Source: an uncultured candidatus Porisulfidus sp.
GTDB taxonomy: Bacteria > Pseudomonadota > Gammaproteobacteria > Poriferisulfidales > Poriferisulfidaceae
Direction: 5' to 3'
NCBI GenBank assembly: GCA_965116025.1
Contig: OZ220480.1
Coordinates: forward strand, 544,001-608,000
Length of the DNA: 64,000 bases
Shown piece after piece: positions 13,513-60,100 of the stretch. The notes beneath the pieces are model-generated. The model made no database searches, was not told the origin of the DNA, and saw only the letters and a list, made by a program, of their open reading frames with translations. Each line of letters opens with the position of its first letter. Position 1 is the stretch's first letter. The position numbers and the translations under genes are program-made.

Positions 13513-16500
13513 TCAGAAGCGAACCCTCAGCAGGACGCTCGCGCCGTAATCATAATTGTCGCCATCCGACGCCGCGTAGTGAGCGTCCGCCGATAGCGTC
13601 GACTCCCCGCGCGCGTCCAGCGTCATCACGCCCCCGACGCCCAAACGCGCCCACGTGGACTCCGCCTCCGAGCGCAGGCGCGACCCCGACGCCATGACAT
13701 CCCGGCTCTCCGACAGCTCGCGCTCCATGTCCAAAGAGGCGTACGTCTGGCCGTTCTCCAGCAACATTCCGATCCGCGCTCTCACGCTGTCCTCCGAGCG
13801 AAACGACACCCGACCGCTTCCTGTAACGCCCGACACGTCGTCAAAGCCGTCGACGTCCACCCAAGTCCACGTCAATCCCCCGCGCGGAACCAGCGCGAAG
13901 CCATCCATCTCCATCCGCCTGCCGACCTCCACGCCGATCGCGTGACCCTCTCCGTCCAGACCGGACGCCACCATCCCCCGAGTCTCCGAGCTCAGGTCGA
14001 TGTCCTCGAAACGCGTGTACGAGAGCTCCCCATCCGCGTACCAGCCGTCCTCCCCCCGCCAGGTCGCCGAGGCCCCGACGCCCACGCCCGAGACCTTGAT
14101 CTTCCCGCCACGCGCGACGTCCGCCTCGCCGTCCCGGTAGCGCGCGCTCGCGCCCAGCGTCAACCCCGGCGTGTCCGTGGGAACGACGATGCCGGTCTCC
14201 ACGCCCCAGCGCTCGAAGTCCCAAGACAAATCATGCCCGGCCGTGTCCATCGCGGTCGTGGACATATCCGCCTCGCGCTCGCCGTCGCTCGCCATGACCC
14301 GCGCCCAAACGCCCCCGCCGTCCCGCGTCGCCGACAACCGCGCCTGACGACCGCCCGGCGCGCTCATCTCCAGCAGCACCGACGGCAGCGCCTCGTACAC
14401 TCGAGCCCGGGCGTGATACGCCCGGCCCGACTCCTCGAACTGGTGCCCGCCCTCGATCGTCTTCAGGGTGACCCTGGAGACGTCGTACACGCCGCGCGTC
14501 TCGAGGCCCGGGCTGAGCGCGTACTCCCCGTCCACCTTCACCCCGTCGAAGGTCGTCGTTCCACTGTTGAGCATCTTCCCCTTGACGTAGCCAATGCGTC
14601 CGACCGCGTCCTTCTTCATGGTGATGGTCAGCCCCCCGTCCGACTTCACCGCGGTTCCGGACGCCGCCTCGACCTTCGCCTTCGGCCCAACCACCAGCGT
14701 CCCGCCGTTCACCATCCGAACGCCAGCGTGGTCTCCATCGCCGCCCATTACCTTGCCGTTGATCGTGACCGTCTGGTCATATTGTCCCGCCCGGGCGTGG
14801 CTGGCGGCGAACGTCCGCTTGCCCTTGACATGCACCCCGTCCTTCTTGGCCTTCACCGTCGCCATCTCCCCCACCGTGACCTCGATCTTCCCGGCTTTCG
14901 TGGGATCGTCGTAAACGGTGGCGGTCTCCGCGTAGATCCCATACCCGTCGGCCATGATCGTTCCGCCCGACACGTCGACCGTGATCGGGATGATCATGAT
15001 GCCATCTCTCGAATTGTCCATATCTTTCACGTAGGCGAGAATGCCGTCGCCCTTCGACGTGATGGCCGCCTTTGACGTGATCTCGATCTCTCCGATCTCG
15101 GCGGTGTGCGTGGAAGGGTCGTTTCCGTCGAACGTCTTACCTTCAAGCGTCTGGAACTGCGAGCCTCCGTGGAAAGCGAAGACGCCGGCGGTCCGCGGCT
15201 TCAGGTCCGCCAGCTCCGTCTCGTGATCATCCGACAGATCGTCGAACGGGTTGGGCGCGTCGCCCGCGACGATCTCCCCCGCTAGGTGCTTCACCACCGC
15301 GTTTCCCCAGCCATAGTTCCAAGCGATCAGTCCGGAGCCGCTCGCGTGAACGAAGCCCTCGTTGGTGATCGTCATGTCGTTTCCGTCATCATCGTTGAGG
15401 GTCTGAGTGAATATGCCGTATCCGCCGACCGGAGTCTCCGCGGTACCGATCCGCGCCCCCGCGGAGATGTCTACCTTTATCGTCCCCCCGCTGGTGACCT
15501 GCTTAATCTCAACGCCGTGCCTGCCTATGGTCGGCTCATCCCCGTCCACGCCAATCCGCGCGCCGGGTTTCAGCGTCACCTCGACATCCCGATTGACCGG
15601 GTCATCGGGATCGACCGAATTGTACCGGTAGACGTAGATTCCCCTCCCGCCTCTGATCCCCCTCCCGCCGCTCCCCGTCCAGGCGATCTCGCCCGCGAGA
15701 TCCACCTTGATGAGTCCGCCTTTGTGGTAGGCGGAATAAACGTAAATTCCATCTCCCCCAAAATCAGTCTCCGTGTCACTCAGCCTGCCCGCCGTGATAA
15801 CGCCCCCCGTCACGTCGATCATCATCGGAACGATCGAATCTTCTTCGGAATTCTTGTCTCCTTCCGTCTCGACATGGATACCATGCGCGCGGGCCCAAAT
15901 ATCTCCGCTTGAGGTGATCGCGATCACGCTGCTGGAATCCTCGCCGGATGCCGGCGCGGTCGTGTCCACTTGTTTGACGTTTATGCCGTCGCGGCTGATT
16001 GTCGTATCATCCAGTGTAGCCACTCCGCCCGTGAGCGTTTCCGCGTAGAGGGGTCGTTGCCTCTTGCTTACGAGCGTTCCGTGGTTCGTGACCGTGACAT
16101 CGCCTCCCTTGAGGAGAGTGACATGAATTCCCTTACTGGTCACGCTGCCCTTCGCCGTCTCGACGGCGACATCTCCAGACCCCGCGTGGTACACCTGAAT
16201 TCCTCGGTAATACCCATAGATCTGGCCCCGGCTCATGATAGAGACGTCACCTTGGGCGGAAGAATTGCTGTAATACGCCAGAACGCCTTGACGCCCCACC
16301 GGAATCTCATCAGTTCCGATTCGCGCCTCGGTCCCGACCACAATCTCGATCTTGTCCGCTCTGCTAGGGTCGCCAGCTTTGTCGTTCTCGACGTGAATTC
16401 CGTGATTCCTTTGGCCCCGCAGATACTGGGGCTCGATGAAGGTCGCGCTGTACTGTTGACCGTTGAAAGTGTACGTGGCCGGGGTCGTCGTCCACCCCGC

Positions 16501-16936
16501 CTCGTTCACGACGCTCACTTTGCCTTCCAGCTTGACCGTCAGGGCGCTATCGCCGATCACGGTCACCCCGGAGCGCCGACTTCTGGTGTTAGGAGGAAGG
16601 AACGACCTGATGGTCGTCATCTCCCCGGAAGGCTTCACGGTCAGCGTCAGACCGCCCGTCTGACCCGTGTACTCGATGGGATTGGCATCGGCGTTATTAG
16701 TCCCGCCGTAGGTCGCGGCGGCGCAGGTGACCGTTTTGGCGGCGCTGACGGTGCCGCACTCGTCCGCCTCGGCGGAATGCGGAATCAGCGGAATGGAGAG
16801 AACGGCCGTCAATCCGGCCAGAACAGTCAGGAAACGAGGGCTATGCCCCCCCCCCCCCCCCCCCCCCTATGCGGGAAGACGACGAGGCGACGCGAAGCGC
16901 GGCGCGAATCTCGAAAACGGAAAGGTTCTTGGTCAT
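13513..16936 (-). CDS. Autotransporter (type Va), copy B, out of frame at a poly-G tract in the signal-peptide region
   Basis: ATG 16936 with SD-like gaagaggga (MTKNLSVFEIRAALRVASSSSRI), G22, then immediate GCA TAG. The downstream frame HSPRFLTVLAGLTAVLSIPLIPHSAEA continues 1099 aa with a Gly-rich beta-helix-like passenger, linker ARARVYEALPSVLL and a beta-barrel GGVWARV...GASVLLRVRF ending in Phe. Confidence 0.9.
16846..16867 (-). repeat. G22 homopolymer (C22 on + strand), putative phase-variation tract
   Basis: 22 consecutive C counted directly, in the same leader context as 1783-1805. Confidence 0.9.
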
Positions 16937-32558: not shown

Positions 32559-33311
32559 ATGACCTCTCCCACTCTAGACGGCCGAACCGTCCTGATCACC
32601 GGCTCCGCGCGGCGGCTGGGCGCGCGCATGGCGCGCCTCCTGCACCAGGATGGCGCCAACATCATGCTGCATTGCCTGCGCTCCGTCGCCGACGCCCAAC
32701 CCTTGGCGGAAGAGTTGCAGGAGCGGCGTGACGACTCGGTCGCCCTGGTCACCGCCGACCTGCGGGAAGAGCAAAGCGTGGTCTCGATCATCGCGGCGAC
32801 CATGCGGGCGTTCGGACGACTGGACGCCCTGGTCAACAACGCGTCTTTGTTCGAGCCAGGCGGGGCCGCCCCGGCGGATCCGAAGCGGTGGGAAGAGATC
32901 CAGGCGGTGAACGTGCGCGCCCCTTGGCTTCTGGCCGAGGCGGCGGCTCCGCATCTGCGCGAAACGCGAGGCTGCATCGTCAACATTCTGGATATCTACG
33001 CGGCGCGCCCGCTACCGGGATACCTGTCCTACAGCACCAGCCAAACCGCCCTGGCCGGGCTGACTCGCGGCCTCGCGCTGGAACTCGCGCCAGAGATTCG
33101 CGTCAACGGAATAGCGCCTGGGGCGATCCTGTGGCCGGAAGAAGAAGACGGCCGGGACCGGCAGGCCATCATCAACAGCACAGCTCTGAAAAGGCTGGGA
33201 CATCCGGACGACATCGCCCGCGCCGCGCTATTCCTGATCCGGGACGCCGGCTACCTGACCGGAGAGATCGTGACCGTCGACGGCGGGCGTAGCCTCACGC
33301 CATGGATCTGA
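32559..33311 (+). CDS. Pteridine/dihydromonapterin reductase (SDR, FolM-like)
   Basis: ITGSARRLG, LVNNAS and IRVNGIAPG motifs; next to folK/folB. Confidence 0.88.
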   Translation: MTSPTLDGRTVLITGSARRLGARMARLLHQDGANIMLHCLRSVADAQPLAEELQERRDDSVALVTADLREEQSVVSIIAATMRAFGRLDALVNNASLFEPGGAAPADPKRWEEIQAVNVRAPWLLAEAAAPHLRETRGCIVNILDIYAARPLPGYLSYSTSQTALAGLTRGLALELAPEIRVNGIAPGAILWPEEEDGRDRQAIINSTALKRLGHPDDIARAALFLIRDAGYLTGEIVTVDGGRSLTPWI

Positions 33312-33791
33312 CACGGCGCGCAAGGTGATGGGCCTTTCCTCTCGCCACCGCCTCCACAACCGCTCGATGGGCACGTCCAAAACCGGGTGCTTCAGGTCTC
33401 CGCAGATTTCCGCCAAGGGACCAAGCACGAATTCGTGATCCAATATCTCGTCGCGCGGAAGAGACAAAACCCCATCCCCCAGAACCCAGTCGCCATAGAG
33501 CAAAACATCCAGATCGATCGTGCGGGACGCGAAGCGGTCCTTGCCGCGCACCCGCTCCAGCTCAGTCTCGATCTTGGACAAGACCTCGTTGACGATATGA
33601 GGATGGTCCCGCGTCTCGAACGCCACCACCATATTATGGAAATCGTCCCCCTCGAACCCCAGCGCCGGAGACTCGTACAGAGTGGACCGGGTCAGGGGGC
33701 CGTAGTGATCCTCCAGCCGCTCCAGAGCTTGGGCGACCTTGCGCTCCCGGTCGATGTTGCTGCCGAGGCTGACGTACACCCGCTCCATCAA
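33228..33791 (-). CDS. folK: 6-hydroxymethyl-7,8-dihydropterin pyrophosphokinase
   Basis: VYVSLGSN, RTIDLDVLLY and FVLGPLAEI motifs. Confidence 0.94.
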   Translation of the reverse strand: MMERVYVSLGSNIDRERKVAQALERLEDHYGPLTRSTLYESPALGFEGDDFHNMVVAFETRDHPHIVNEVLSKIETELERVRGKDRFASRTIDLDVLLYGDWVLGDGVLSLPRDEILDHEFVLGPLAEICGDLKHPVLDVPIERLWRRWREERPITLRAVSDPWREATPAVDGHDLSGQVAGVPDQE

Positions 33792-34138
33792 TCTCCCCGT
33801 TCGATCACGACGCCAACCTCCTGCGCGGCGCGAACCGCGAACGGCTTGGCGATCCGCACTCGCACCCAGCGCACCTTGAACTCCTCTTGGATGATGGCGG
33901 CGACCGCCTCGGCCAACGTCTCGACCAGCTGAAACTGGCTAGCCTCCGCGAACTCCACCACGCGCTTGCTGATCGCCTTGTAATCGACGGCGTCCTCCAG
34001 CGCGTCGCTGGCCGCCGCACCCGCCACGTCCGCCCGAAGGTCGATGTCCAGAAGCAGGTTTTGGCGAATTCGCTTCTCCCAGTCGAACACGCCAATCACG
34101 GCTTTCGCCTTGAGTCCCTTGATGAAGACCGTGTCCAT
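33788..34138 (-). CDS. folB: Dihydroneopterin aldolase
   Basis: IGVFDWEK, VDYK, LVETLAE and VGVVIER motifs. Confidence 0.95.
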   Translation of the reverse strand: MDTVFIKGLKAKAVIGVFDWEKRIRQNLLLDIDLRADVAGAAASDALEDAVDYKAISKRVVEFAEASQFQLVETLAEAVAAIIQEEFKVRWVRVRIAKPFAVRAAQEVGVVIERGD

Positions 34139-36876: not shown

Positions 36877-37350
36877 ATGCGCCCGAAGCTTCATCCGGCA
36901 CGGCAGGGGGTCCCGCTTGCCGCCATTCTTGCGGTGGCCACGTCTCTCCCGCTATCCGCATGCAGCGGGGAAGGCACCGACCTGACGGGTTCTCGAGCCT
37001 GGGTTACCACGCCCTCCGCCGAAGGCGTCTCCACCTGCGGCGTGACCGTGCGCAACAGAACCGATGAAGCGCGAACGTTGCGGCATGTCATGGCGACGGA
37101 TTTTCTACGCGCGGAACTCCGCGCGAGCGTGGGCGAAGAATCCACCTCTCCTCCCCACATCATCGTCGAGGCCAACGCGTCCACCGAGTTGCCGCCGAAC
37201 GGCGCGACCTTCCTGCTGAAAGGGCCCAAGCGCTCCCTTCATGTCGGAGACGAAACCCTGCTCGCGCTGCACTTCGACGACGGTCAAGCGATTTTCATCA
37301 GCGCGAAAGTCGGAGTCGCGCCACCGTCCTCCCTCGTCCCGAGGCCATGA
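36877..37350 (+). CDS. PCu(A)C-fold lipoprotein lacking the usual His/Met copper ligands
   Basis: Lipobox LSAC; AWV...VRN...ELPPNG..FLL.GPKRSLHVGDETLLALHFDDG spacing matches PCuAC; ATGA overlap with tupB. Confidence 0.65.
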   Translation: MRPKLHPARQGVPLAAILAVATSLPLSACSGEGTDLTGSRAWVTTPSAEGVSTCGVTVRNRTDEARTLRHVMATDFLRAELRASVGEESTSPPHIIVEANASTELPPNGATFLLKGPKRSLHVGDETLLALHFDDGQAIFISAKVGVAPPSSLVPRP

Positions 37351-38048
37351 GCGATTTCAGCGACGCCCTGATCGCCGCGGCTGGCATGCTGACCGGGCTG
37401 GATCCCGACCTTCTGGAAATCATCCGGCTGTCGCTGTTCGTCACGCTGACCGCCGTTGGCTTGGCCACCGTGATCGGCGTTCCCTTGGGGGGATTGCTGG
37501 CCGTGAGGCGATTCCCGGGCCGCGCGTTCGTCGCGCTCGTCATCGACGCTTTCATGGGCCTTCCGCCCGTCGTGGTCGGGTTGATCGTCTATCTCTGGCT
37601 GTCGCGTTCCGGACCTCTCGGGGTGCTGGGGCTTCTATACACCCCGACCGCGATGATCATCGCGCAATGCCTGCTGGTCACGCCCATCATCGCCGCCCTG
37701 TCGCGCCAAGTCATCGCCGACGCGCATGGGCAATATGACGAGCAGCTTCGTTCCCTTGGCGCGGCGCGATGGCAACGCGTCGCGACCCTGCTCTGGGAAA
37801 CTCGGACCAGCCTTCTCGTGGCCGTGCTGGCCGGGTTCGGGCGCGCCAACGCGGAAGTTGGCGCCGTCATGATCGTGGGGGGAAACATCAACCATGTAAC
37901 CCGGGTGATGACCACCACGGTCGCCTACGAAACCAGTCGCGGCAACCTGACCGAAGCCTTGGCGCTCGGCATCGTTCTGATTCTGATCGCCATGCTGCTG
38001 ACCTTGTTGCTGCACCAGTTGCGCAGGCTTGACGTGGGACCCCGATGA
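37347..38048 (+). CDS. tupB: Tungstate ABC transporter permease
   Basis: MGLPPVVVGL and GFGRANAEVGAVMIVGGNI motifs. Confidence 0.92.
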   Translation: MSDFSDALIAAAGMLTGLDPDLLEIIRLSLFVTLTAVGLATVIGVPLGGLLAVRRFPGRAFVALVIDAFMGLPPVVVGLIVYLWLSRSGPLGVLGLLYTPTAMIIAQCLLVTPIIAALSRQVIADAHGQYDEQLRSLGAARWQRVATLLWETRTSLLVAVLAGFGRANAEVGAVMIVGGNINHVTRVMTTTVAYETSRGNLTEALALGIVLILIAMLLTLLLHQLRRLDVGPR

Positions 38049-38788
38049 TGCGGCGCCATCCGAAATCCCTGTTTCCCCTAACGGTCTCCGGCTTAGATTT
38101 CGTCGTTGACGGGGAGCTGCTGTTGTCGGGGCTTTCGCTCAAGCTGGAAGAGAAGGGATGCACCGCGATACTCGGCCCGAACGGCTCCGGCAAAACCCTT
38201 CTGCTACGCCTGCTCCACGGCATGCTGACTCCCGCGTCCGGCTTCGTTCGATGGGGCGGCCTCACGCCAGCCCAAGCCCTGCCTTCGCAAGCCATGGTCT
38301 TCCAGCTGCCCGCCATGCTCAACCGTAGCGCGCGGGCCAACATCGACTACGCTTTGCGGTTGCGACGAGTCCCGGGCGCCGAGCGCCGGCGACTCGTTCA
38401 GGAAGCCATCGAGCTCTGCGGGCTGACCGAAGTGGCCGGGCGCAACGCCCGCGTCCTGTCCGGGGGCGAGCGCCAGAAACTGGCGATCGCGCGAGCTTGG
38501 GTCACCCGGCCGAGAGCCCTGCTGATGGACGAGCCCACCTCGGAACTGGACCCCCTCGCCACCCGCGAAATCGAATCCATGATCCAGCGGGTCGTCGCCC
38601 AAGGCGTTCGAGTCCTCTTGGCTACCCACGACATGAATCAGGTCCGTCATCTGGCGAACGACGTTTTGTTCCTGGAATACGGTCGCCTAAGCGCCCATCT
38701 TTCGATTGAGGATTTCCTGAACTACCAGGGAGACGGCGCGCTGCGCGATTTCGTCGCCCACCCGACCCGCTCCGAAATCATCTCGTAA
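38045..38788 (+). CDS. tupC: Tungstate ABC transporter ATPase
   Basis: GPNGSGKT, LSGGERQ and MDEPT motifs; operon context. Confidence 0.88.
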   Translation: MMRRHPKSLFPLTVSGLDFVVDGELLLSGLSLKLEEKGCTAILGPNGSGKTLLLRLLHGMLTPASGFVRWGGLTPAQALPSQAMVFQLPAMLNRSARANIDYALRLRRVPGAERRRLVQEAIELCGLTEVAGRNARVLSGGERQKLAIARAWVTRPRALLMDEPTSELDPLATREIESMIQRVVAQGVRVLLATHDMNQVRHLANDVLFLEYGRLSAHLSIEDFLNYQGDGALRDFVAHPTRSEIIS

Positions 38789-38792
38789 ATTC

Positions 38793-39605
38793 ATGCGCTT
38801 CCTGTTTTCCCTTGCCGCCAGCTGCCTGGCCATCTCTCCCGCGATAGCGGAATCGGAGTTCCTGACCATCGCGTCCACCACCTCGACGGACCACTCGGGT
38901 CTCTACGACTATCTGCTACCGATCTACGAAGAAAAATCCGGAGTGCGCTTCCGGGTCGTGGCTGTCGGAACGGGACAGGCTATTCGCAACGCGATGCGTG
39001 GCGACGCCGACCTGCTGATCGTTCACCATCGCGAATCGGAGGACCGCTTCGTCGCCGAGGGCTACGGGCTGAGGCGGAACGACTTGATGTACAACGAGTT
39101 CATCCTGATCGGACCGCGCGAGGACCCCGCCCGGGTCTCGACCGCGGGCAACGTGGAGGAAGCCCTGCGCCGTATCGCGCGCTCAGGCGCCACGTTCGTC
39201 TCCCGCGGCGATGACAGCGGAACTCACAAGAGGGAGCTGGAACTGTGGGCCAGAGCGAAGATCCCGGTGCGTCCCGCCAGCGGAGACTGGTACTGGGAAG
39301 CCGGCGCCGGCATGGGGCCCACACTAAACACCGCGGCCGCGCGGCATGCCTACGTACTGAGCGACGGAGCCACCTGGGCCGCGTTCGGCAATCGGCAAGA
39401 CTTGGTCGCGCTGTATCGAAACGATCCGCTACTGCACAACCAGTACGGGGTCATCGTGGTCAGTCCCGACCGCCACCCCCATGTTAAATGGAGACTGGCC
39501 CAAGCGTTCTCGGAGTGGCTGCTATCAGAGGACGGACAGCGGGCGATCACGGATTTCCGGATTGGCGAAGAGCGGGTCTTCTTCCCGAACGTCCCGCCCC
39601 GCTGA
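38793..39605 (+). CDS. tupA: Tungstate ABC transporter binding protein
   Basis: STTSTDHSGL, VGTGQA and FVSRGDDSGTHKRE TupA motifs. Confidence 0.93.
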   Translation: MRFLFSLAASCLAISPAIAESEFLTIASTTSTDHSGLYDYLLPIYEEKSGVRFRVVAVGTGQAIRNAMRGDADLLIVHHRESEDRFVAEGYGLRRNDLMYNEFILIGPREDPARVSTAGNVEEALRRIARSGATFVSRGDDSGTHKRELELWARAKIPVRPASGDWYWEAGAGMGPTLNTAAARHAYVLSDGATWAAFGNRQDLVALYRNDPLLHNQYGVIVVSPDRHPHVKWRLAQAFSEWLLSEDGQRAITDFRIGEERVFFPNVPPR

Positions 39606-51791: not shown

Positions 51792-52235
51792 ATGGAACAT
51801 CATCAGCAAATTCCCACCCAAGAGGCTTCCGCTCATTCCGCCCCGCGACCGCCCGGGTTCGATACAATGAGAGCGCAGAAGAAACTGACGAACGGAGGCT
51901 TCCAGGAGCGACAAGCCATGGCTATCGTCGAGACCATTCGAGACTCCCAGGCGGAACTCGCCACGAGAGAGGATTTGCTCGCGACGAGAAGGGACCTGAG
52001 AAGAGAAATAGGGGAAGTTCGAAAGGACTTGAAAGCCGAGATCGTGAAGCAGGGGCTCGAGCTTCGCAACGAATTGCATAGCGAGATTGGTGGCCTGCGC
52101 AAAGAGATGCAGGATCAGTTTTCCGCTATGCAGGATCGTCTCTCTATCATGCTCTGGCGCATCTTGCTCGGCTTTGGAGTGATCGTTGGCATTTTCGGAA
52201 CCATCGTCGGAATCGTCTTCACGTTAACTGGCTGA
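51792..52235 (+). CDS. DUF1640/CCDC90-like coiled-coil membrane-anchored protein
   Basis: FDTMRAQKKLTNGGFQERQAMAIVE...LATREDL head, heptad stalk, C-terminal TM; SD aggaga. Confidence 0.82.
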   Translation: MEHHQQIPTQEASAHSAPRPPGFDTMRAQKKLTNGGFQERQAMAIVETIRDSQAELATREDLLATRRDLRREIGEVRKDLKAEIVKQGLELRNELHSEIGGLRKEMQDQFSAMQDRLSIMLWRILLGFGVIVGIFGTIVGIVFTLTG

Positions 52236-52332
52236 AAGTGAGCCCCGGAAGCCGGCTTCATCGGCCGGGTCACCATTGGCTAAACGGAGCGAGATGATGG
52301 GAGAACGCCCTTGGAACGGGGTCGGCGCCTTA

Positions 52333-52645
52333 TCAGGTCAGTACGCGAAGAGCGGTCTCCGGAGCCTTGTCGAGCACCCGCAACAGCGCGCGCGCCGCGC
52401 CAGTCGGCCCGCGCTTCCCCTGTTCCCAATCGCGGATCGTCTCGCACGGCACGTTGATGCGCCGCGTCCCGCATGGCCTCAATTTCATCTTCCTTCTGTT
52501 GCGCGGCGATTTCGGCTTCGGTAGTACCGTCAACCACCGCGAGGTCGACCCGCCCCTCGAGGAAAGTCGTCGGATCTTCCAGATCAACACTGATGCGCGT
52601 TATGCTCATAGCTCGCGGTCTCCTTTCCGTTGGCTTCGCGAATTG
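52333..52645 (-). pseudogene. Decayed toxin-antitoxin module: XRE-HTH antitoxin with internal deletion/frameshift, plus 3' remnant of a BrnT-like toxin
   Basis: MSITRISVDLEDP...EAMRDAA shifts frame into RRINVPCETIRDWEQGKRGPTGAARALLRVL; overlapping upstream fragment IREANGKETASYEHNAHQC*. Confidence 0.7.
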
Positions 52646-52676
52646 TACGACGCGAGAGAACCCGCCTCTCCCACCG

Positions 52677-53795
52677 TCACCTTGAGATTTGGATCAGCGC
52701 GCCGGATTCCGGGAGGCGCGAAGCCTCCTGAAGAAGCTCGCATAATTCCATGTTGACATAGTAGTCGCCACGACCCGCGCGGCGTTTCTCGACCAGACCA
52801 GCATTCGCGAGCTGACCCAGCCAGCGAATGGCGGTCGCCCGCGAAACCCCCAGCTCACGCTGGACATGCCGTGAACGCGTGTACGGATGCCGGAACAGGT
52901 TATTCAGAAGATCCTGAGAGTACAACTTGGGCAAGACCTCGCGCATCCGCGCCTTGCGTTTCTTCATGAGCTCGTGGATCCCGGAGACCAGGCGCATGCT
53001 CGCCTTGGACGTCTCCTCGACCACCGCGAGCATGTATAGCGTCCAATCCTCCCATGCGTCCTCTTCCCGAGCGGACTGGAGCAGTTGGTAGTATCTCGCC
53101 CTAGTCTGGAGAATCGTCCGGCTCATGTACAGGATCGGAGGATCCAGCAAGCCCGTCTTCGCGAGGTAGAGAGCGTTCAGGACTCGGCCCACGCGCCCGT
53201 TGCCGTCGGAGAAGGGGTGAACGCTCTCGAACTGCAGATGGATGAGCGCCATCCTGATCAACGGATCGAGTGGCCCCGGGGATACGTCATTGACATAGCG
53301 AAGAAGCGCGCGCATGAGGCTCTTGATCTCGGCGAGCTCTTTCGGCGGGACATACACGATTCTCCGCTCCGCTGGATCTCCCCCGTAGGCGGGCTTCTCC
53401 CGGAAGCCATCTTGACGACCCGTGATCTCTCGATAAACATCTATAATCACGCGCTCCGTGACCCGCCATCCTGATTCGATCAGGATTCGGTAGCCCTTCT
53501 TCAAGGCCCGCCGATACCGCATCACCTCTTTGGTGGCAGCGGACGCTCTCGACTCCCCCAGAACGCCATCTGCTCGGAAAAGCTCATCCTGCGTGGTCGC
53601 GATATTCTCGACCGCGGAACTCGCGTGCGCTTCCTGCAAAGTGAGCGTGTCGATCAATATTTCCTGATTCGGTATGGATGCCGCGCGGCCCGCGAGCTCG
53701 CCCAAGGCGCGATTCGCGCTGGCGAGAGCCTTCAAAATCCGTACCGTGTTGAGATCGACCCCATAGGGAGGCAACGGGCAAAGATATCGTTCCAT
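52677..53795 (-). CDS. Fic-family protein with C-terminal HTH
   Basis: Canonical HPFSDGNGRVGR motif, N-terminal SSAVEN inhibitory-helix motif, GVSRATAIRWL HTH. Confidence 0.92.
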   Translation of the reverse strand: MERYLCPLPPYGVDLNTVRILKALASANRALGELAGRAASIPNQEILIDTLTLQEAHASSAVENIATTQDELFRADGVLGESRASAATKEVMRYRRALKKGYRILIESGWRVTERVIIDVYREITGRQDGFREKPAYGGDPAERRIVYVPPKELAEIKSLMRALLRYVNDVSPGPLDPLIRMALIHLQFESVHPFSDGNGRVGRVLNALYLAKTGLLDPPILYMSRTILQTRARYYQLLQSAREEDAWEDWTLYMLAVVEETSKASMRLVSGIHELMKKRKARMREVLPKLYSQDLLNNLFRHPYTRSRHVQRELGVSRATAIRWLGQLANAGLVEKRRAGRGDYYVNMELCELLQEASRLPESGALIQISR

Positions 53796-54197
53796 TCTTG
53801 ACAAAAAACTTATCAAAATTTGCCGTTTATTATATCTTCAACAATTAATCATTTCAAATATAAATATTTTTGATATATAGCTGGAGCGATCTTCTCAAAA
53901 TTCTCGGTATTTGAACGAATGACTCAGATGAGACCGCAAGAATTTCGGAGCGCGTTTCCCGAAAATTTCCCACGTGGTGAAAGGCCGATACCCCACCCCC
54001 ATAATCATGGTGCCGGCCTCGCGATCTCAAGCGCGAGATAGGGGATGCGCCTATGGAGCGCGGAGGCCATCGCCCGCGACCTCTCCACGGCCGCGTCAAA
54101 TCGCGCGCGAATTTCCGCTTAAAGCAACAGTACGCGGAAAACTGTTGCAATTAGGCCGGATGCCGCCTTCCGCGGGCGGATTCCCTAGGGCTGAGGC

Positions 54198-55073
54198 TCA
54201 AAACGCGCGACTACGGAAAGGCTCGACCGCTCCCTGCATCGCCGCCGCCCGCGCCGTATTGAGCAACAGGCAAGCCACCGTCATCGGCCCGGTGCCCCCG
54301 GGCATCGGGGTCACGCGTCCCGCGACCTTCCGGACCTCCTCGAATCGAACGTCCCCCTGGATCTTCCCGCCCACGCGGTTCACCCCGACATCGAACACCG
54401 CCGCGCCGGGCTTGACGTGCTCCGCCGTGATCATTCCGGGACTGCCGGTCGCCGCCACCAGAATATCCGCCTCGCGCGCGATCCTTCGCAGACCCCGAGT
54501 GCGCGAGTGCGCCACGGTCACGGTGGCGTCCACCCCACGCTCGGCCAGCATCAGCGCCATCGGCACGCCTACCAGGCGCGAGCGCCCAACCACCAGGGCT
54601 CGCGCTCCAGAAGTCGGAATTCGGTAATGCCGGATCAGCTCCATCACGCCGAACGGCGTGCATGGACGCAACCCGGGAAGCCCCGCCGCGAGACGGCCCA
54701 AGTTGGTTTCCGTCAGGCCGTCCACATCCTTATCCGGAGGGATGGCGGCTAGCGCCTCCGCGGAGTCCAAGCCGCCCGGAAGCGGCATCTGCACCAGGAT
54801 CCCGTGCACGGATGGGTCGCCCGCCAAAATCCGGATCGCCTGGACCAGATCCTCCTGAGCGATGTCCGCGGGAAAGGCCTGATGCCGCGAGATGATCCCG
54901 GCCTCGTCGGCCTCCCTGATCTTCCGGGAGACGTACAACTGGCTGGCCGGGTCCTCGCCGACCAGCACGGTCGCCAAGGTCACCGGGGCCGCGGCATCCA
55001 GACGCTCGGCAAGCCGCGCGCGGATTCCGCGCGCGACCGCGTCGCCGTCGATCAGCCGCCCGGACTCACTCAA
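54198..55073 (-). CDS. folD: Methylenetetrahydrofolate dehydrogenase/cyclohydrolase
   Basis: ILVQMPLP, KDVDG, PCTP, GRSRLVG and PGGTGPMTVA motifs. Confidence 0.96.
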   Translation of the reverse strand: MSESGRLIDGDAVARGIRARLAERLDAAAPVTLATVLVGEDPASQLYVSRKIREADEAGIISRHQAFPADIAQEDLVQAIRILAGDPSVHGILVQMPLPGGLDSAEALAAIPPDKDVDGLTETNLGRLAAGLPGLRPCTPFGVMELIRHYRIPTSGARALVVGRSRLVGVPMALMLAERGVDATVTVAHSRTRGLRRIAREADILVAATGSPGMITAEHVKPGAAVFDVGVNRVGGKIQGDVRFEEVRKVAGRVTPMPGGTGPMTVACLLLNTARAAAMQGAVEPFRSRAF

Positions 55074-55992
55074 TGGGGGGTTGCTTGTCCGGGTCGAGAT
55101 AGATCAGGTTCTTTCCAAGGCGGCCGCCGTAGTTTCCGGCCGAGATCATGATCAGGCCCGCGGTGTCGCGAGACGCCTCGATGGCCGCGTGGGTGGCCTG
55201 GATGATCGTCTCCAGGTCGCGCCCGTTAATGATGATCTCCATGACCGAGCTCACGCCTTCCGGGAGGCCTCGCTCGACTTCCGGGTCATCCTGCAGCATG
55301 GGGCAGAATTTCTCGTAGGTGCTGGCGATCGAGAACTTGTACGCGCTGCCGGGTTTGGAGCCAGACCCCGCGACTCCGCCGGGGAAGCACATCACCACGC
55401 CCGGCGTCTTGGCGATCGCCTCGACTCCCTTCATGGCGGCGTTCAGCGCGGAATCGACATCGCCGCCGAAGAACCAGAGATTGCCGCCCATCAGGCCGTC
55501 GGCGTACCCTAGCCTGCGGTCCAGCACGAACTCGCCGCCCAGAATCGGCACCCACCACATCTTTCGCCCGAATCGCTCGACGCGGCGCTGCTTGCCATTC
55601 CCGAAATAGGCGACCTTCCGGCCCATCTGGAAGTGATCCTCGGTGTCCAAAAGATTGAAGCAGGAAGCCGTCGGGCAGGTCAGCACGTTCTGGCTGATCC
55701 GCACCAGCGCGGCCCGCTCCAGCTTCTCCACCCGGTCCTTCCAGAAACGCGGCACGTGCAATTGCACGATCGCGCCCGGGCGTCCGTCCGGGGTCTCGAA
55801 AGACTCGTCTCCCCCCGGTCCCACGAACCGGTCCAGGCCCGCCTCGCAATCACACAGAATCGTGCTGGCGGCGTTCCCGACCGCGGCGTCCACCGCGTGC
55901 CGGACCCAGGTCTGGTCCCGGGCCGTGATCAGAAACTCAGTGTAGAGGCTACGGAACGCCTCGGCGTAAGTGTCATCGATTCGCGCGGACAT
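55066..55992 (-). CDS. Formylmethanofuran-tetrahydromethanopterin N-formyltransferase family protein (Ftr/FhcD-like)
   Basis: IDDTYAEAF, CDCEAG, TPDGRPG, QNVLTCPT, GGNL, FPGGVAGSGSK, EIIING and ISAGNYGGRLG are Ftr signatures. Confidence 0.92.
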   Translation of the reverse strand: MSARIDDTYAEAFRSLYTEFLITARDQTWVRHAVDAAVGNAASTILCDCEAGLDRFVGPGGDESFETPDGRPGAIVQLHVPRFWKDRVEKLERAALVRISQNVLTCPTASCFNLLDTEDHFQMGRKVAYFGNGKQRRVERFGRKMWWVPILGGEFVLDRRLGYADGLMGGNLWFFGGDVDSALNAAMKGVEAIAKTPGVVMCFPGGVAGSGSKPGSAYKFSIASTYEKFCPMLQDDPEVERGLPEGVSSVMEIIINGRDLETIIQATHAAIEASRDTAGLIMISAGNYGGRLGKNLIYLDPDKQPPIE

Positions 55993-55995
55993 GGA

Positions 55996-56628
55996 TCAGT
56001 CTCGCCCGCGACCCCGATAGACCGCGTCCTCGGTCACCACGTAATCCATGTACACGTCGTGCGGAGCGACCAGAATCTCTTCGAACAGCTGCGATTCGTA
56101 GCACAGCGCCACCAGCGCGCAATCCGGACGGACCCGCTCGAGCAAGCGGTCGTAGTAGCCTTGGCCGTTGCCCATGCGGCCGCCGTCGCGGTCGAAGCCG
56201 ACGCCCGGGACCATCACCATGTCCAACTCCTCCGCCGCCGGCTCCTTGTCCGGGTTGCCCCACATCTCTTTCGGAGGCTCGAGGATGTTCCATTTGCCGA
56301 CCACCATCTCCTCCAGACTCTCCATGTGCCACAGGCCGAGCTTGTTCTCCCCCTTCTCGTCCACCGTGCAGTACGGCACGACGATCTTCTTCTCGCCCTT
56401 GGCCACCTCGTCGAGCAGTTGCGGCTTGGTGCGGGTCTCGGAGCGGCAGTCGATATACCACATGACGGAGCGGGCGTTCCCATACTCCTCCAAGGCCATC
56501 AGGCGCCCCACCGCCCGGGCGCTGATCTCGTCCTTGTTCTCCTGGGCGTTCCGGCGGTCATACGCCTCGCGGCGCATCTTGGCCTTCCGCTCCATGATCG
56601 CGTCAAGTTCTTCTTGTGACAAAGCCAT
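55996..56628 (-). CDS. 5-formyltetrahydrofolate cyclo-ligase
   Basis: VPGVGFDRDGGRMGNGQGYYDRLL, ILEP and PHDVYMD motifs; SD aggaga. Confidence 0.93.
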   Translation of the reverse strand: MALSQEELDAIMERKAKMRREAYDRRNAQENKDEISARAVGRLMALEEYGNARSVMWYIDCRSETRTKPQLLDEVAKGEKKIVVPYCTVDEKGENKLGLWHMESLEEMVVGKWNILEPPKEMWGNPDKEPAAEELDMVMVPGVGFDRDGGRMGNGQGYYDRLLERVRPDCALVALCYESQLFEEILVAPHDVYMDYVVTEDAVYRGRGRD

Positions 56629-57160
56629 CGGGTCTCTCCTATGCGCCTGCGGCGGGGAAAATCGGGTAACCGGAAAAGTGAGGTGCAGATTATAGGGGAT
56701 TTCGCTCCAGGCGCCTGAAAGCGGGGTGGAAGGCATCACTGGCGGCAATCATCGCCTCTCCGGGCTCGCTTCCACCCATCCGTCCCTAGCCTCGCGATCA
56801 AGCGGAGCGAGACCCTCTGACATGGTGGATGACGCCACGCGCCCAGTCGCGCCTTCACCAGCGTTTTCCTTACTTTTCTGGCTCCTTTGTAGCGAGTCGT
56901 CAAAACATAGCCAACTCTCCCCCGGATTGCCATCAGCAACCTGTTACTCCGCTTCTGGTCCAGTCGTCTCCTTCGTCGCCTCGCGCGCTGGTCAACCAGC
57001 GCGGTTTTCGGGCGTGTCACGCTTGAAAGTTGAAACCGGGGCTACCAAAAAATCCAGTATCCGACGAAACACCACAACAGGCCAGCCAATATAAAAGCCA
57101 CCCAGTTCGAGACTTGATCCGCGCCTCTTCGAACCAGCAGAAAGTCATTCCTATTAATCT

Positions 57161-60100
57161 TCATACGATGCGCGCCTCGCCCCCAACGATGGAGTACGTG
57201 GGCCGTTCGAGCCCGGACCAGGAGATGACGGATGACTGTCCTTTGTGAGTCAGAGTCACGGCCCCGGCCGAGAGCAACCGATCCCGCCACGACACGCTAT
57301 CGAACAACGAATCCCGGACGATCAGGACATCGGTGCCGCCCTCGCCGCCGTCCAGGTCGCCACTGAGCGCGGCGTTGGCCAGCAGAACGAATTGGTCTAC
57401 GTTATGGCCCCCCCGTAGCCTCTCCACCCCGGTGAAATCGACGGTCCACATCCTTCCGTCTTCGCCCGCCCCGAACCGGAGGTTTCCAGAATTGGAGCCG
57501 TCAAGGGTCCAGACGACGTTCACGCCGGGCCCCTGGATGGCGTCAATCGCGCCGCCGGCGCGAATACCTCTCATCCCGTACGCCTTGAAACCGTAGACTT
57601 CGAAGCTGCCGTCCGTAGAGAACGTCCAGGTCGTGTCCTCGTTCTTGCCCACGAACCAGTTCTTGCCAGAACCAGCCGCCAGCTTCTCGAACCCGTGGAG
57701 AGTCCAGGTGGCGGCGGTGGCGCGATCCTGCGCGTCGAGAGCTGGCCCCACGCGCGCCGCTCCCGCCTCCGTGACCGACCATGCTCGATCACCGGCGTCC
57801 CCCAGCGCCGTGTCCTCTCCACTTCCCCCTCCCAGCTCCTCGACCGAAGTGAATCGGGCCAGCAGCGCCTCGCTGTAGGAATCCAGCGTGGCCAGCATCC
57901 GACCTGATTCCCCGGAGTCCGGCAGAGTCCAGAGAGTCGCCTCGTCATTGAGGATCGCGATGCGGTCGTTTCCCTCTCCCCCGTCGAACTCGATGATCGG
58001 CAGGGGATTGACGGTCTCCGAGATGCTCAACGCGTCATCGAAGCCATCCGCGTCAATGGTGACGGTATCGTCGCCGGAGCCGGTCAGGATCACGAATCGG
58101 GTAACGGCCCCAAGTTCCACGTCCGCCAACTCGCGGTCCGACCCGTCCACGAGCTTGATACGGTGGGCGCCATCCGGATCCGTGGCCAACTTGAACCTGA
58201 GATCAAGATCGCCAGTCTCCGAACTTCGGTCAACGGTGTAAATGGACTCGACGAGCTCGAAGTCGGTATAGGAGACGGTGATGTCGTCGAGAGTCACGCT
58301 GCCCGACTCTGGAGAGCCGCTCATCTCGATCAACTCGTAATCGGTGTATTCGTAGGCCAGCGTGTCCTCGCCATTGCCTCCGTTCAGCCTCTCGATGCCA
58401 GTGAATCCGATCCGTAATCCCTCCTCCTTTCCGTCGAGCGCGCTCGATACATCGCCCGCGCCCGCGCCCGCGCCGGACAGGGTCCACCGCGAATTCTCGT
58501 CGGAAAGCACCGTGAGCACGTCGTTCGCGCCTTTCTCTCCCGTCACGATGAAAGACGGGGTCCGCGTGGCCGCGTTCTTTCCGAGCAAACTGGCGAAGGA
58601 CGTAGCGTCGATCACGACGCGGTTGTTCGCGCCTCCCCCAAGCGTCACGCGAAGAATGGAAATGTCCGAGAGATCCCAACTGTGAATTTCCTCCGGATCG
58701 GAGTCGAGCGTGGGAAAATCGTAAACCTTGACATAGTAAGCGGTCCGCGTCTCCTCGTTCACGGTCGTCTCCACGGCGACCAGCTTGACCTGAACGATCC
58801 GGTCCTCCTCGTCCTCATTCTCCTCGGCTCCGAGATTTATCTCCCGCTCCGTGGATTCGAAGTTAGCGCGAGCGATCACCGGGCCGATGGCCGGGCCCGC
58901 CACATGCTTGATGCGGAGAGAATCCGTCGGGCCGGCTCCGTCGAGACTCTCCACTCCGGTAAAGTCCACGGTCAGCGGTCCGGAATCCTCCGCGACCGTG
59001 GCCCACGCCACGCCATCGCCGTCCGGCTCCACGATCCAATCGGTTTTCGCGTCGTTGGTGATGACCAATTGGTCTTGACCTCGTCCGGCATCCACGATGA
59101 TCACGGGTGGCTGGGGACTGTCGGACTGCCGGGCACCGAACGAAGTCGCGTCGATGACGATCCGATCATCGCCATCCCCGGTGCGCAGAATGATCGATGT
59201 GGTGTCGGACGCGCTGGTCGCGGCCACGACTACGGCGGGATCATCGGCATCGACCGCGGCGAAGCGCGCGCTTCCGTTCTCACCATCCACGCGCTTGACA
59301 AGAAGCCGCTGGGCAGCCTCCTGATCGGAGCGGTCGATCACCCATGTGGATTCGACGCTGTCGAAGTCCGAATAAGACAACGACGCGCCGTTAAGCTGGA
59401 CCGTCTCGCGCGCTCCCGGCCCCTCGACCGCGGGGCGGTGACTGAACGCGACGCTCGTGAAATCCGATTTCACGACCGCCAGCTCGTCCTTCCCCACGCC
59501 GCCCACCAAATTCTCCGCGCCGGACCAAGAGACGTTCAGCCGAGTCTCTCCATCCGCGAGATTGCCGCTCACCGCGCCTGCATCCGCGTTTCTGACCGAC
59601 CACTTCAGGTCGCCTCCGTGGGTGATCTCCAGTCGATCTTGATCCCCCTCCCCAGTATCGACGAGAAACTCCGGAACCGCCTCGCCATCACTCAGGTCCT
59701 GGAAGGAATCCGCCTTGATCGTGACCCAATCGTCACCCCGCCCGGTGTTGACGGAAACTCGGGAGACATCGGCGAGCCGCTGCTTGGCGACGACATTCCC
59801 GGTGTTTCGGTCAACGATCTGGACGTAATTGACGTTCTTCATGTCGCCGTTGGCCCGTTCCCTCTGCTTGACCATCTTGACGATGAGCTGCTGCTCCCCC
59901 GCGCCGCCAGACAACCCGGTCACGTCGTGGACAGCTCGCCGTTGAGCAGCAGACGAGGCTCCATCGCCTCGAACAGAAACGGCTGCCTAGCGCGCGGGCG
60001 GCGCGCCTCCGGCCAAGTTGGGATGCGGGAGCGGACCCAATTCCGGACCACTCCAGAAAGCGGACTTCGGGACTCGGGTTCCAGGCAACTCTCGGACGAG

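Follow-up and report, generated by a model that had tools for sequence, protein, structure and literature searches.

To our knowledge, textbook methylotrophy has just two connections between the oxidative H4MPT pool and the assimilatory THF pool: free formate together with formate-THF ligase (Fhs/FtfL), and the spontaneous condensation of formaldehyde with THF. 5-Formyl-THF has so far been seen as a side product, and 5-formyl-THF cyclo-ligase (MTHFS), whose reaction is ATP driven and effectively irreversible, as its salvage enzyme. The canonical formylmethanofuran:H4MPT formyltransferase (Ftr, or FhcD in the FhcABCD complex) takes a furan amine as one substrate and a single pterin as the other. 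A study of Fhc (Hemmann et al. 2019, PMC6926001) reports that methylofuran is a prosthetic group to which Fhc holds tightly, with about 97% of it protein bound, and that Fhc, given formate, charges this methylofuran with formyl until about 40% carries it at equilibrium. The same study gives Glu252 as the catalytic glutamate of FhcD.

Here we analyze a locus of a sponge-associated sulfur oxidizer at which a divergent Ftr paralog, Ftr2, is encoded between MTHFS and FolD genes. The window, that is, the whole 64,000-nucleotide stretch of DNA that was analyzed, corresponds to positions 544001 to 608000 of the 2.02-Mb genome; coordinates preceded by G000 are genome positions, and all others are window positions. 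This gene context points to an undescribed, putative route for C1 units into the folate pool. An earlier note on this DNA had proposed that Ftr2 makes 5-formyl-THF, which the ligase and FolD would then draw into folate metabolism, and the genomic context supports that reading: each genomic check suggested there gave the outcome expected under it. We found no description of the MTHFS-Ftr2 pair in the literature on these enzymes and the serine cycle, which was available mostly as abstracts.

Ftr2 is encoded in an operon with MTHFS and FolD genes

The three open reading frames (Table 1) are packed as tightly as previously described, with 3 nt between the MTHFS-like gene and ftr2 (55993 to 55995) and an 8-nt overlap between ftr2 and folD (55066 to 55073). 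By direct reading, a GGAGA Shine-Dalgarno motif and a TATAAT box lie upstream of the MTHFS start codon; the TATAAT site is absent from the output of a consensus promoter scan, and a longer TTG-start frame extends to 56748.

Table 1. Features of the MTHFS-Ftr2-FolD locus (window positions)
Feature	Position	Strand	Description
Operon		-	Three co-oriented ORFs: MTHFS family, then Ftr2, then FolD
MTHFS-like gene	55996..56628	-	210 aa from ATG at 56628
Ftr2 gene	55066..55992	-	308 aa; divergent formylmethanofuran:H4MPT formyltransferase (Ftr/FhcD) paralog
FolD gene	54198..55073	-	291 aa, TTG start; bifunctional methylene-THF dehydrogenase/methenyl-THF cyclohydrolase
Operon 5' leader	56629..56702	-	Promoter-like, conserved; from the blastn limit and motifs read by eye

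The MTHFS-like protein matches PF01812 (131.6 bits) and passes the equivalog model TIGR02727 (125.5 bits, cut-off 84.9; Pfam and NCBIfam), spanning profile positions 1 to 182 of 182, and its best solved relatives are the MTHFS structures 1sou, 1ydm, 2jcb, and 3hxt. As it passes the equivalog and is the only copy in the genome, it most likely still acts on 5-formyl-THF in an ATP-dependent cyclization. FolD, also single copy, has both the catalytic and the NAD(P)-binding domain (PF00763, 113 bits; PF02882, 197.9 bits) and scores under the cut-off of every lineage-specific NCBIfam FolD model. Both lobes of Ftr2 are full length (PF01913, residues 4 to 150, 136.6 bits; PF02741, residues 153 to 299, 156.6 bits). 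The protein passes the subfamily model NF002554 (306 bits, cut-off 297) and falls below the FhcD equivalog TIGR03119 (one_C_fhcD; 281.1 bits, cut-off 292.6).

Ftr2 forms a clade of its own

The earlier note had taken Ftr2 for a paralog, and phylogenetic analysis agrees: Ftr2 falls outside canonical FhcD in its own clade (SH-aLRT 100, stem 0.61), whose members are at least 64% identical to one another and at most 47% identical to every other Ftr representative. The same gap was found among 300 Gammaproteobacteria, in which Ftr matches are either at least 72% identical to Ftr2 (7 genomes) or at most 48%. Identity between Ftr2 and the canonical FhcD of the same genome is 39%. Carriers of the clade are marine Gammaproteobacteria and Planctomycetes. 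Its members are frequent in marine metagenomes: of 5403 family matches there, each of the best 120 shares 75% identity or more with Ftr2.

The catalytic apparatus of Ftr2 is retained while other conserved positions have been switched. Glu252 of Ftr2 aligns with the catalytic glutamate in all four solved sequences (Glu245 in Ftr of M. kandleri, counted on this alignment) and is invariant among 29 Ftr2 orthologs; glutamate occupies this position in 14/14 rows of the Ftr2 clade and in 39 of the 45 other rows. Elsewhere, Ftr2 has Glu19 where 41/45 other Ftrs have arginine, a reversal of charge, as well as Tyr226 in place of asparagine (36/45) and Leu151 in place of methionine (37/45). Insertions at residues 60 to 62 and 79 to 83 are specific to the clade.

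The canonical pathway is encoded elsewhere in the genome

The statement that mch, mtd, fae, and fhcABC are missing from the window holds. The genome does encode a canonical fhcBADC cluster, mch, fae, and an mtdB-like gene, all outside the window (G000 355228 to 359992 and 1653797 to 1660240). Canonical fhcD lies within fhcBADC (G000 356043 to 356936), 243 kb from ftr2, which is thus a second copy and not the sole FhcD serving Fhc. Two or more Ftr genes are present in 46 of 50 Ftr2 genomes, three of them in some, and Mch is found in 50/50; MfnB is present in all 5 Ftr2 genomes tested.

Genomes with a single Ftr gene proved uninformative. G013 had appeared to be a natural knockout with Ftr2 and no canonical FhcD or FhcA, a candidate that we rejected as an assembly-gap artifact because ahead of its fhcC there remain the final 26 codons of an fhcD that a 100-N scaffold gap has truncated. 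G039 and G048 are multicontig Planctomycete metagenome-assembled genomes in which FhcA is present, and G049 is a partial bin of 0.9 Mb.

Within the window, the pterin genes folB and folK (33228 to 34138) and a "tupBCA" transporter (37347 to 39605) had been cited as compatible with active C1 metabolism. They are present, TupA and TupB being best matches below cut-off (192 versus 400 and 175 versus 320 bits; NCBIfam), and add nothing specific to the C1 reading.

MTHFS and Ftr2 genes are linked across two phyla

We compared 80 related loci from Gammaproteobacteria and Planctomycetes (81 with the present one). The linkage to folate genes on which the proposal rests is conserved: an MTHFS gene lies directly upstream of ftr2 in 74/80 loci, with 8 nt or less between its stop and the ftr2 start in 63 of those 74, so the linkage is not due to chance. 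The full triplet also recurs, with folD downstream of ftr2 in 54/80 loci and the 8-nt overlap found again in 7 close relatives. Pairwise protein distances of MTHFS and Ftr2 are correlated (Mantel r 0.74; 0/2000 permutations as high), and fhcABC is not among the recurrent neighbors of ftr2 in any of the 81 loci. In Planctomycetes, the MTHFS-Ftr2 pair is kept outside a serine-cycle or ilvD context; five Planctomycete loci have ftr2 without partners, which counts against a route coupled to MTHFS and FolD.

The linked MTHFS is the sole copy in 49/50 Ftr2 genomes. Its sequences are 62 to 93% identical among Ftr2 carriers and 25 to 35% identical to most other gammaproteobacterial MTHFS. We considered whether this MTHFS is exclusive to Ftr2 carriers and rejected the idea, since five genomes that lack Ftr2 (G215, G149, G198, G132, and G324) have an MTHFS 39 to 57% identical to it. 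In three of them (G215, G198, and G132), the gene, 46 to 57% identical, lies behind ilvD, so Ftr2 may simply have landed beside a resident gene.

The operon occupies the place of Fhs in serine-cycle clusters

In relatives, the trio heads a serine-cycle cluster. Downstream of it (n = 81 loci) are an sga-like aminotransferase gene (53 loci), a malyl-CoA-lyase-like gene (46), mtkA (42), and mtkB (38), and mtkA at these loci scores 650.5 bits (cut-off 604). The cluster comprises mtkAB, malyl-CoA lyase, a serine-glyoxylate-type aminotransferase, and hydroxypyruvate reductase, the exact reactions of the aminotransferase and the lyase being presumed because they score under the specific equivalog cut-offs. 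In the present genome, a rearrangement has put the serine-cycle genes (G000 858618 to 863929; mtkA 646.1 bits, cut-off 604) 260 kb from the triplet, and blastn similarity to close relatives (L007 to L012) stops at G000 600702, window position 56702.

That the route would bypass Fhs, as the earlier note suggested, fits the gene inventory: no Fhs gene was found in this 2.02-Mb genome, and the gene is missing from 44 of the 50 Ftr2 genomes examined. A search of this genome for Fdh-alpha likewise gave no match above cut-off. Among 300 Gammaproteobacteria, 31 are positive for malate thiokinase (mtkA). Fhs is present in 24/24 of those without Ftr2, and in 7 of these it lies no more than 10 kb from mtkA; Ftr2 is present in 4/4 of those without Fhs. 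This two-by-two pattern overstates the support, because few Gammaproteobacteria have Fhs in general and related genomes do not count as independent observations. Nor is the exclusion strict, as Fhs occurs alongside Ftr2 in 3/7 genomes of the class sample and 6/50 of the locus set. In relatives, the trio sits in the cluster place where Ftr2-less genomes keep Fhs.

Discussion

The gene context suggests the following route. Ftr2 would take a formyl group from the H4MPT/methylofuran pathway of formaldehyde oxidation and place it on N5 of THF. Its donor would be formyl-methylofuran, which could have either of two sources, formyl-H4MPT or, with the FhcA hydrolase running backward, formate; the formylation of methylofuran from formate by Fhc makes a formate-derived donor plausible. 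The cotranslated MTHFS would then convert 5-formyl-THF to 5,10-methenyl-THF at the cost of one ATP, and FolD would either hydrolyze this product to 10-formyl-THF or reduce it to 5,10-methylene-THF, which would feed serine hydroxymethyltransferase and the serine cycle. Together, Ftr2 and MTHFS would replace Fhs/FtfL at equal ATP cost, and the ATP-driven, effectively irreversible MTHFS step would set the flux toward folate. That Ftr2 uses these two substrates is inferred, as is the flux direction, and we give this Fhs-bypassing shunt about an even chance of being correct (probability roughly 0.5). A more specific proposal, which we make tentatively, is that Ftr2 may be the first enzyme whose specific task is to make 5-formyl-THF for use along a pathway; it would then be a methanogen-type Ftr that acts on THF, takes its formyl groups from the methylofuran arm of Fhc, and, with MTHFS, forms a two-enzyme replacement for Fhs.

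Several observations weigh against the shunt. The operon in this genome no longer adjoins serine-cycle genes, and MTHFS and FolD, being single copy, could be housekeeping genes merely beside Ftr2. A predicted complex of an Ftr2 dimer with MTHFS scored 0.02 against a mark of 0.32, to which we give no weight either way. In addition, methylofuran is bound to Fhc, and a free-standing Ftr2 would need some means of reaching it. This access problem would be avoided if Ftr2 were a direct pterin-to-pterin transformylase that passed the formyl of N5-formyl-H4MPT straight to THF, with no part for methylofuran, ahead of MTHFS and FolD; methylofuran is, in the study cited above, almost wholly Fhc bound (PMC6926001). 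Mch, the maker of formyl-H4MPT, accompanies Ftr2 in every one of the 50 genomes, and Ftr2 differs from all other Ftrs in its switched positions and insertions. However, since a canonical Ftr pairs a furan amine with a single pterin, two pterin sites would require a larger remodeling than about 40% identity and retained core motifs suggest. MfnB is present wherever it was sought, and the only apparent genome with Ftr2 and no Fhc was the artifact G013. We therefore regard such a direct transfer as unlikely.

Ftr2 might also be an ordinary formyl-methylofuran:H4MPT isoenzyme, a free-standing or differently regulated FhcD, next to housekeeping MTHFS and FolD genes; their adjacency would come from a shared C1 regulon or from synteny by descent, and no metabolite would be handed over. 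Its retained catalytic glutamate and its score over the NF002554 cut-off are consistent with this explanation, as are the single-copy MTHFS and FolD genes, the ilvD-MTHFS synteny known without Ftr2, and the common paralogy seen in genomes with three Ftr genes. We consider it improbable, as it leaves unaccounted for the overlaps or junctions of 8 nt or less in 63/74 loci of two phyla, the persistence of the pair in Planctomycetes outside the serine-cycle or ilvD context, the complementarity with Fhs, and the reversed charge at the site where 41/45 other Ftrs have arginine. The module could, alternatively, be confined to H4MPT, with Ftr2 forming N5-formyl-H4MPT and the MTHFS homolog acting as an ATP-dependent 5-formyl-H4MPT cyclo-ligase that yields methenyl-H4MPT and so bypasses Mch reductively or irreversibly. 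Ftr2 is seen only together with the H4MPT pathway, and Kaster et al. (2011, PMC3087415) mention MTHFS homologs in folate-less methanogens, with a suggested role on 5-formyl-H4MPT. This variant is very unlikely: the ligase scores over the bacterial MTHFS equivalog cut-off and is the only MTHFS in 49/50 genomes, in which salvage of 5-formyl-THF would be lost; a futile cycle with Mch would result; and there would be no accounting for the downstream genes (folD and those of the THF-dependent serine cycle) or for the replacement of Fhs.

If the Ftr2-MTHFS-FolD shunt operates as predicted, it would join the H4MPT and folate C1 cofactor systems by a new and direct enzymatic connection, in Planctomycetes and in Gammaproteobacteria that are abundant in the sea and in sponges. 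It would explain how C1 units are loaded onto folate in serine-cycle genomes that lack Fhs, including that of this sponge-associated sulfur oxidizer, and 5-formyl-THF would gain an assimilatory role, with MTHFS recast from repair to assimilation. Public databases label members of the Ftr2 clade as ordinary Ftr, and pathway reconstructions of the carriers may therefore be wrong at this step.

Compared with FhcD of the FhcABCD complex of Methylorubrum extorquens (PDB 6s6y), Ftr2 has the common two-lobe fold family (PF01913 and PF02741) and the catalytic glutamate, and both are restricted to organisms with the H4MPT/methylofuran pathway. In contrast to FhcD, Ftr2 scores only 156.5 bits against 6s6y_D, lies under the fhcD equivalog cut-off, carries the substitutions R to E19, N to Y226, and M to L151, and adjoins MTHFS, never fhcABC, in the loci examined. 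Its best solved matches are the archaeal stand-alone Ftr enzymes (EC 2.3.1.101; PDB 1m5h, 1m5s, and 1ftr/2fhj/2fhk; 218, 213, and 203 bits), which, like Ftr2, are encoded away from hydrolase/dehydrogenase subunits; Ftr2 is bacterial, belongs to a separate clade, and has a folate/serine-cycle context, whereas theirs is methanogenesis. With Fhs/FtfL, Fch, and MtdA of serine-cycle methylotrophs, Ftr2 and MTHFS would share a job, the ATP-dependent entry of formyl groups to THF ahead of methylene-THF, as well as a like cluster position (Fhs is within 10 kb of mtkA in 7/24 Ftr2-less genomes). The proteins are unrelated, and the proposed intermediate is 5-formyl-THF, not 10-formyl-THF, so that the cyclohydrolase step would be dispensable and free formate may be bypassed. 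Finally, the linked MTHFS resembles the salvage enzyme (EC 6.3.3.2) in its PGVGFD...GxGxGYYDR stretch, which aligns with solved MTHFS structures and which we take to be the family signature, but its role would be anabolic and on-pathway, with a formyltransferase of its own supplying the substrate, rather than one of repair.

A divergent Ftr paralog lies in a folate gene trio

Searches with Pfam and NCBIfam upheld the assignments of an earlier note for three genes in the window: a 5-formyl-THF cyclo-ligase (MTHFS) family gene, an Ftr-family gene (Ftr2), and folD. As that note had described, they are co-oriented, all on the minus strand; 3 nt separate MTHFS from Ftr2, and Ftr2 and folD overlap by 8 nt. 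Upstream of the ATG at 56628, direct reading of the sequence showed a ribosome-binding site (GGAGA) and a TATAAT box. Ftr2 scored above the cut-off of NF002554, a broad subfamily model (306 bits versus 297), and missed TIGR03119, the FhcD equivalog (281.1 bits versus a cut-off of 292.6; NCBIfam). The tupBCA and pterin genes that the note had also mentioned are present, with TupA/TupB matches below the cut-offs, but have no bearing on Ftr2.

Features of the window
Feature	Position	Strand	Remarks
MTHFS-family gene	55996-56628	minus	210 aa counted from ATG; Pfam and NCBIfam
Ftr2, Ftr-family gene	55066-55992	minus	308 aa; Pfam and NCBIfam
FolD	54198-55073	minus	291 aa; Pfam and NCBIfam
Fic-family gene	52677-53816		307 bits, under cut-off of 550
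920-aa ORF	57161-59923	minus	directly upstream of the trio, within the ~28.6 kb that relatives lack there
1099-aa ORF	13513-16812	minus	very large
ABC transporter, best match tungstate TupB/TupA	37347-39605	plus	175 versus 320 and 192 versus 400 bits, well under cut-offs
FolK and FolB, adjoining	33228-34138	minus	the pterin genes of the earlier note

The genome (G000), in which the window spans C1:544001-608000, is a single contig of 2,018,984 bp with a completeness of 99.39%, and Ftr2 is not its sole copy: a canonical fhcD (356043-356936) sits elsewhere in an fhcB-fhcA-fhcD-fhcC row. The canonical protein scored higher against PF01913 (196 versus 138.5 bits) and is 39% identical to Ftr2. A cluster at 1653797-1660240 holds Mch, Fae, an MtdB-like gene, and H4MPT-biosynthesis-like genes. 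The genome also has MfnB (PF04476), the enzyme that forms the furan in methanofuran synthesis. There is one copy each of MTHFS and FolD, and a search of the genome with the Fhs profile (PF01268) did not find Fhs. Searches for PQQ alcohol dehydrogenase and Fdh-alpha gave no match reaching the cut-offs, the best Fdh-alpha candidates being NuoG and a 763-aa molybdopterin oxidoreductase (G000:C1:36036-38327; L130 1037-3328, minus strand). The latter, the sole candidate from the Fdh-alpha probe other than NuoG and FhcB, has no NCBIfam model above cut-off and scored 273 bits for the DmsA/YnfE subfamily and 251 bits for Fdh-alpha.

Ftr2 forms a clade separate from canonical FhcD

A sequence search returned 5403 family matches, the best 120 of which are all at least 75% identical to Ftr2; the named ones among these 120 carry the annotation of an ordinary formylmethanofuran-H4MPT formyltransferase. 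In a 50%-clustered library, the best full-length representative (P0121, from Planctomycetota MAGs) is 64% identical, and the other full-length representatives are at most 47% identical. We built a tree from 145 sequences, comprising 74 Ftr2 proteins from loci, 30 canonical copies, and 41 representatives (those of 280-335 aa among 150 listed), reduced to 63 rows without near-duplicates at identity thresholds of 82% for Ftr2 and 80% for the other sequences. In this tree, 13 locus rows and four representatives make up the Ftr2 clade, which has a stem of 0.61 with an SH-aLRT of 100, and all nine canonical copies from the same genomes lie across that stem, so the phylogeny called for in the earlier note separates Ftr2 from FhcD. 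Midpoint rooting, in which the root itself is not inferred, puts Planctomycete sequences basal in the clade.

Hemmann et al. 2019 (PMC6926001) name Glu252 of FhcD as oxyanion stabilising. With four odd or fragmentary rows left out, its equivalent is kept in 14/14 Ftr2-clade rows and 39/45 others. At other conserved positions, Ftr2 has E19, Y226, L151, and N102, where the others have Arg (41/45), Asn (36/45), Met (37/45), and Cys (30/45), respectively; insertions at 60-62 and 79-83 are clade specific. By fold and catalytic residue, Ftr2 is a member of the Ftr family.

Some genomes contain three Ftr-family genes (G006, G007, G015, G026, G029, G034, and G047; G200, G065, G282, G191, and G346). 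Those with Ftr2 have two canonical-type copies besides it, often ~14-15 kb apart (652748 and 667624 in G200), and there may therefore be a further FhcD paralog in the H4MPT cluster.

MTHFS and Ftr2 are linked across genomes

A scan of genome contigs gave 550 confirmed stretches, the best 80 of which served as loci. Their Ftr2 orthologs, from Gammaproteobacteria and Planctomycetes, are 70-93% identical. To test the conservation of the triplet, we ran tblastn, which placed MTHFS directly upstream of Ftr2 in 74/80 loci (the six exceptions being five Planctomycete loci and one truncated contig) and FolD downstream in 54/80. The MTHFS stop is at most 8 nt from the Ftr2 start in 63/74 loci, and the genes overlap in 19. 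MTHFS proteins of these loci are 62-93% identical, and pairwise MTHFS and Ftr2 distances correlate (Mantel r, 0.74), as expected of co-inherited neighbours.

We also sampled the class, scoring 300 Gammaproteobacteria (one further genome was unscored). An Ftr-family match occurred in 36, seven of which have Ftr2 (at least 72% identical). An MTHFS at least 67% identical was found only in six of these seven, adjoining Ftr2 every time; the seventh is a MAG of 62% completeness. Intermediate MTHFS proteins (39-57% identical) occur in five genomes lacking Ftr2, and the remaining MTHFS matches listed are ~25-49% identical, many in partial alignments. The intermediate forms indicate that the ligase belongs to a subfamily older or wider than Ftr2, which weakens the case for a co-transferred pair while leaving it standing. 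The three inspected genomes with an intermediate MTHFS (G215, G198, and G132; L126, L127, and L128), from other gammaproteobacterial lineages, have an ilvD-MTHFS pair without Ftr2 (MTHFS, 46-57% identical). Since ilvD also precedes MTHFS-Ftr2 in 42/81 loci (the best 80 of 550 and our own), Ftr2 and the serine-cycle genes may be later additions behind a resident ilvD-MTHFS pair. In Planctomycetes, the MTHFS-Ftr2 pair recurs without ilvD and without serine-cycle neighbours. Literature searches, with subscription journals and closed supplements outside their coverage, found no publication on this pair.

Serine-cycle genes follow the trio in relatives

We clustered the ORFs of the same 81 loci and ran NCBIfam on representatives. 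The commonest order is [ABC-ATPase, ilvD,] MTHFS, Ftr2, folD, a serine/aspartate-glyoxylate-type aminotransferase, a malyl-CoA-lyase-like HpcH protein, mtkA (representative, 650.5 bits versus a cut-off of 604), and mtkB, with a hydroxypyruvate/glyoxylate reductase sometimes ending the row. At least the aminotransferase is downstream in 53 or more of the 81 loci, and folD is absent before it in a dozen or so; such counts are lower bounds because several loci end at contig ends. As annotated, the downstream genes are a serine-cycle set.

The trio passes directly into these genes in the close relatives L008 and L012 and is ~3.3 kb from them in L009-L011; what lies between folD and sga differs from one close relative to another. 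In G000, sga-mcl-mtkA-mtkB-hpr lies on the opposite strand at 858618-863929, 260 kb away, and the serine-cycle argument therefore stands on the relatives, not on the window. The block upstream of the trio in relatives corresponds to G000 ~629-638 kb, here ~28.6 kb off the trio. Relatives cease to be similar 74 nt 5' of the MTHFS start (window 56702) and, on the other side, just beyond the folD stop. The trio is flanked by rearrangement breakpoints and has thus come through the rearrangements as an intact unit, which fits an autonomous operon. Breakpoint-related positions are window 52000-54200 and 56700-57200 and G000 598207, 600702, 627651-638731, and 858470. Downstream of the trio, GC is lower (0.572 for window 52001-54000), and a separate, strong promoter-like site (11/12 matches at 53857-53829) belongs to the Fic-family gene. 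The 920-aa and 1099-aa ORFs are repetitive, acidic, and Gly/Asp rich, with high GC3.

Ftr2 and Fhs in serine-cycle genomes

In 50 of the 80 loci's genomes (those with long contigs and all Planctomycetes), Mch was present in 50, at least two Ftr genes in 46, exactly one MTHFS in 49, and a true Fhs in six. One chromosome-level MAG, G013, seemed to have Ftr2 without canonical FhcD or FhcA, in which case Ftr2 would have had to serve as the sole outlet for formyl-H4MPT. We rejected this case as a gap artefact: fhcC is present, and in front of it fhcD is cut down to its final 26 codons by a 100-N gap (L123 7131-7230; G013:C1 ~1003130-1003230), with a truncated glnK-like gene on the other side of the gap. 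The gap hides fhcD and probably also fhcA and fhcB. In G021, the first 43 positions of the Mch profile match three times over short stretches ~254 nt apart (G021:C1:2055735-2056371), just upstream of a full mch; these matches resemble a tandem repeat of its 5' end.

Among the 300 sampled Gammaproteobacteria, 31 have mtkA over the cut-off. All 24 without Ftr2 (the unpublished genomes G191 and G089 among them) have Fhs, one match being a fragment at a contig end; in seven, Fhs and mtkA are no more than 10 kb apart. With Ftr2, Fhs is present in three (G304, G346, which is likewise unpublished, and G169) and was not found in four (G000, G102, G200, and G181, the last only 62% complete). No mtkA-positive genome in this small sample therefore lacks both Fhs and Ftr2, although relatives in it are not independent (G000 and G102 belong to one genus).

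A proposed route from H4MPT to folate

The most economical reading is a four-step route to methylene-THF. Fae, MtdB, and Mch would yield N5-formyl-H4MPT, which FhcD and FhcA would interconvert with formyl-methylofuran and formate; Ftr2 would move the formyl group onto THF at N5; and MTHFS would close the ring at the expense of ATP, with FolD then giving methylene-THF. The ATP-driven MTHFS step would set the direction, and the ATP spent would equal that of Fhs. According to PMC6926001, the Fhc reaction is reversible, ~40% of bound methylofuran being formylated with excess formate, and ~97% of methylofuran is protein bound on Fhc. Access to methylofuran is the weak point of a route through Ftr2, which might dock on Fhc to reach it. 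Given this binding, Ftr2 may alternatively use formyl-H4MPT directly as the donor to THF. That MTHFS instead acts on 5-formyl-H4MPT, taking up a suggestion for methanogens by Kaster et al. 2011 (PMC3087415), fits poorly with the FolD and serine-cycle context and with the single-copy MTHFS.

Among solved structures, archaeal Ftrs are the better matches to Ftr2 (218, 213, and 203 bits, versus 156.5 bits for FhcD of M. extorquens). The M. extorquens serine-cycle cluster contains mtdA and fch. Ftr2 differs from FhcD in two FhcD-specific respects, falling below the equivalog cut-off and lying outside an fhcABC context.
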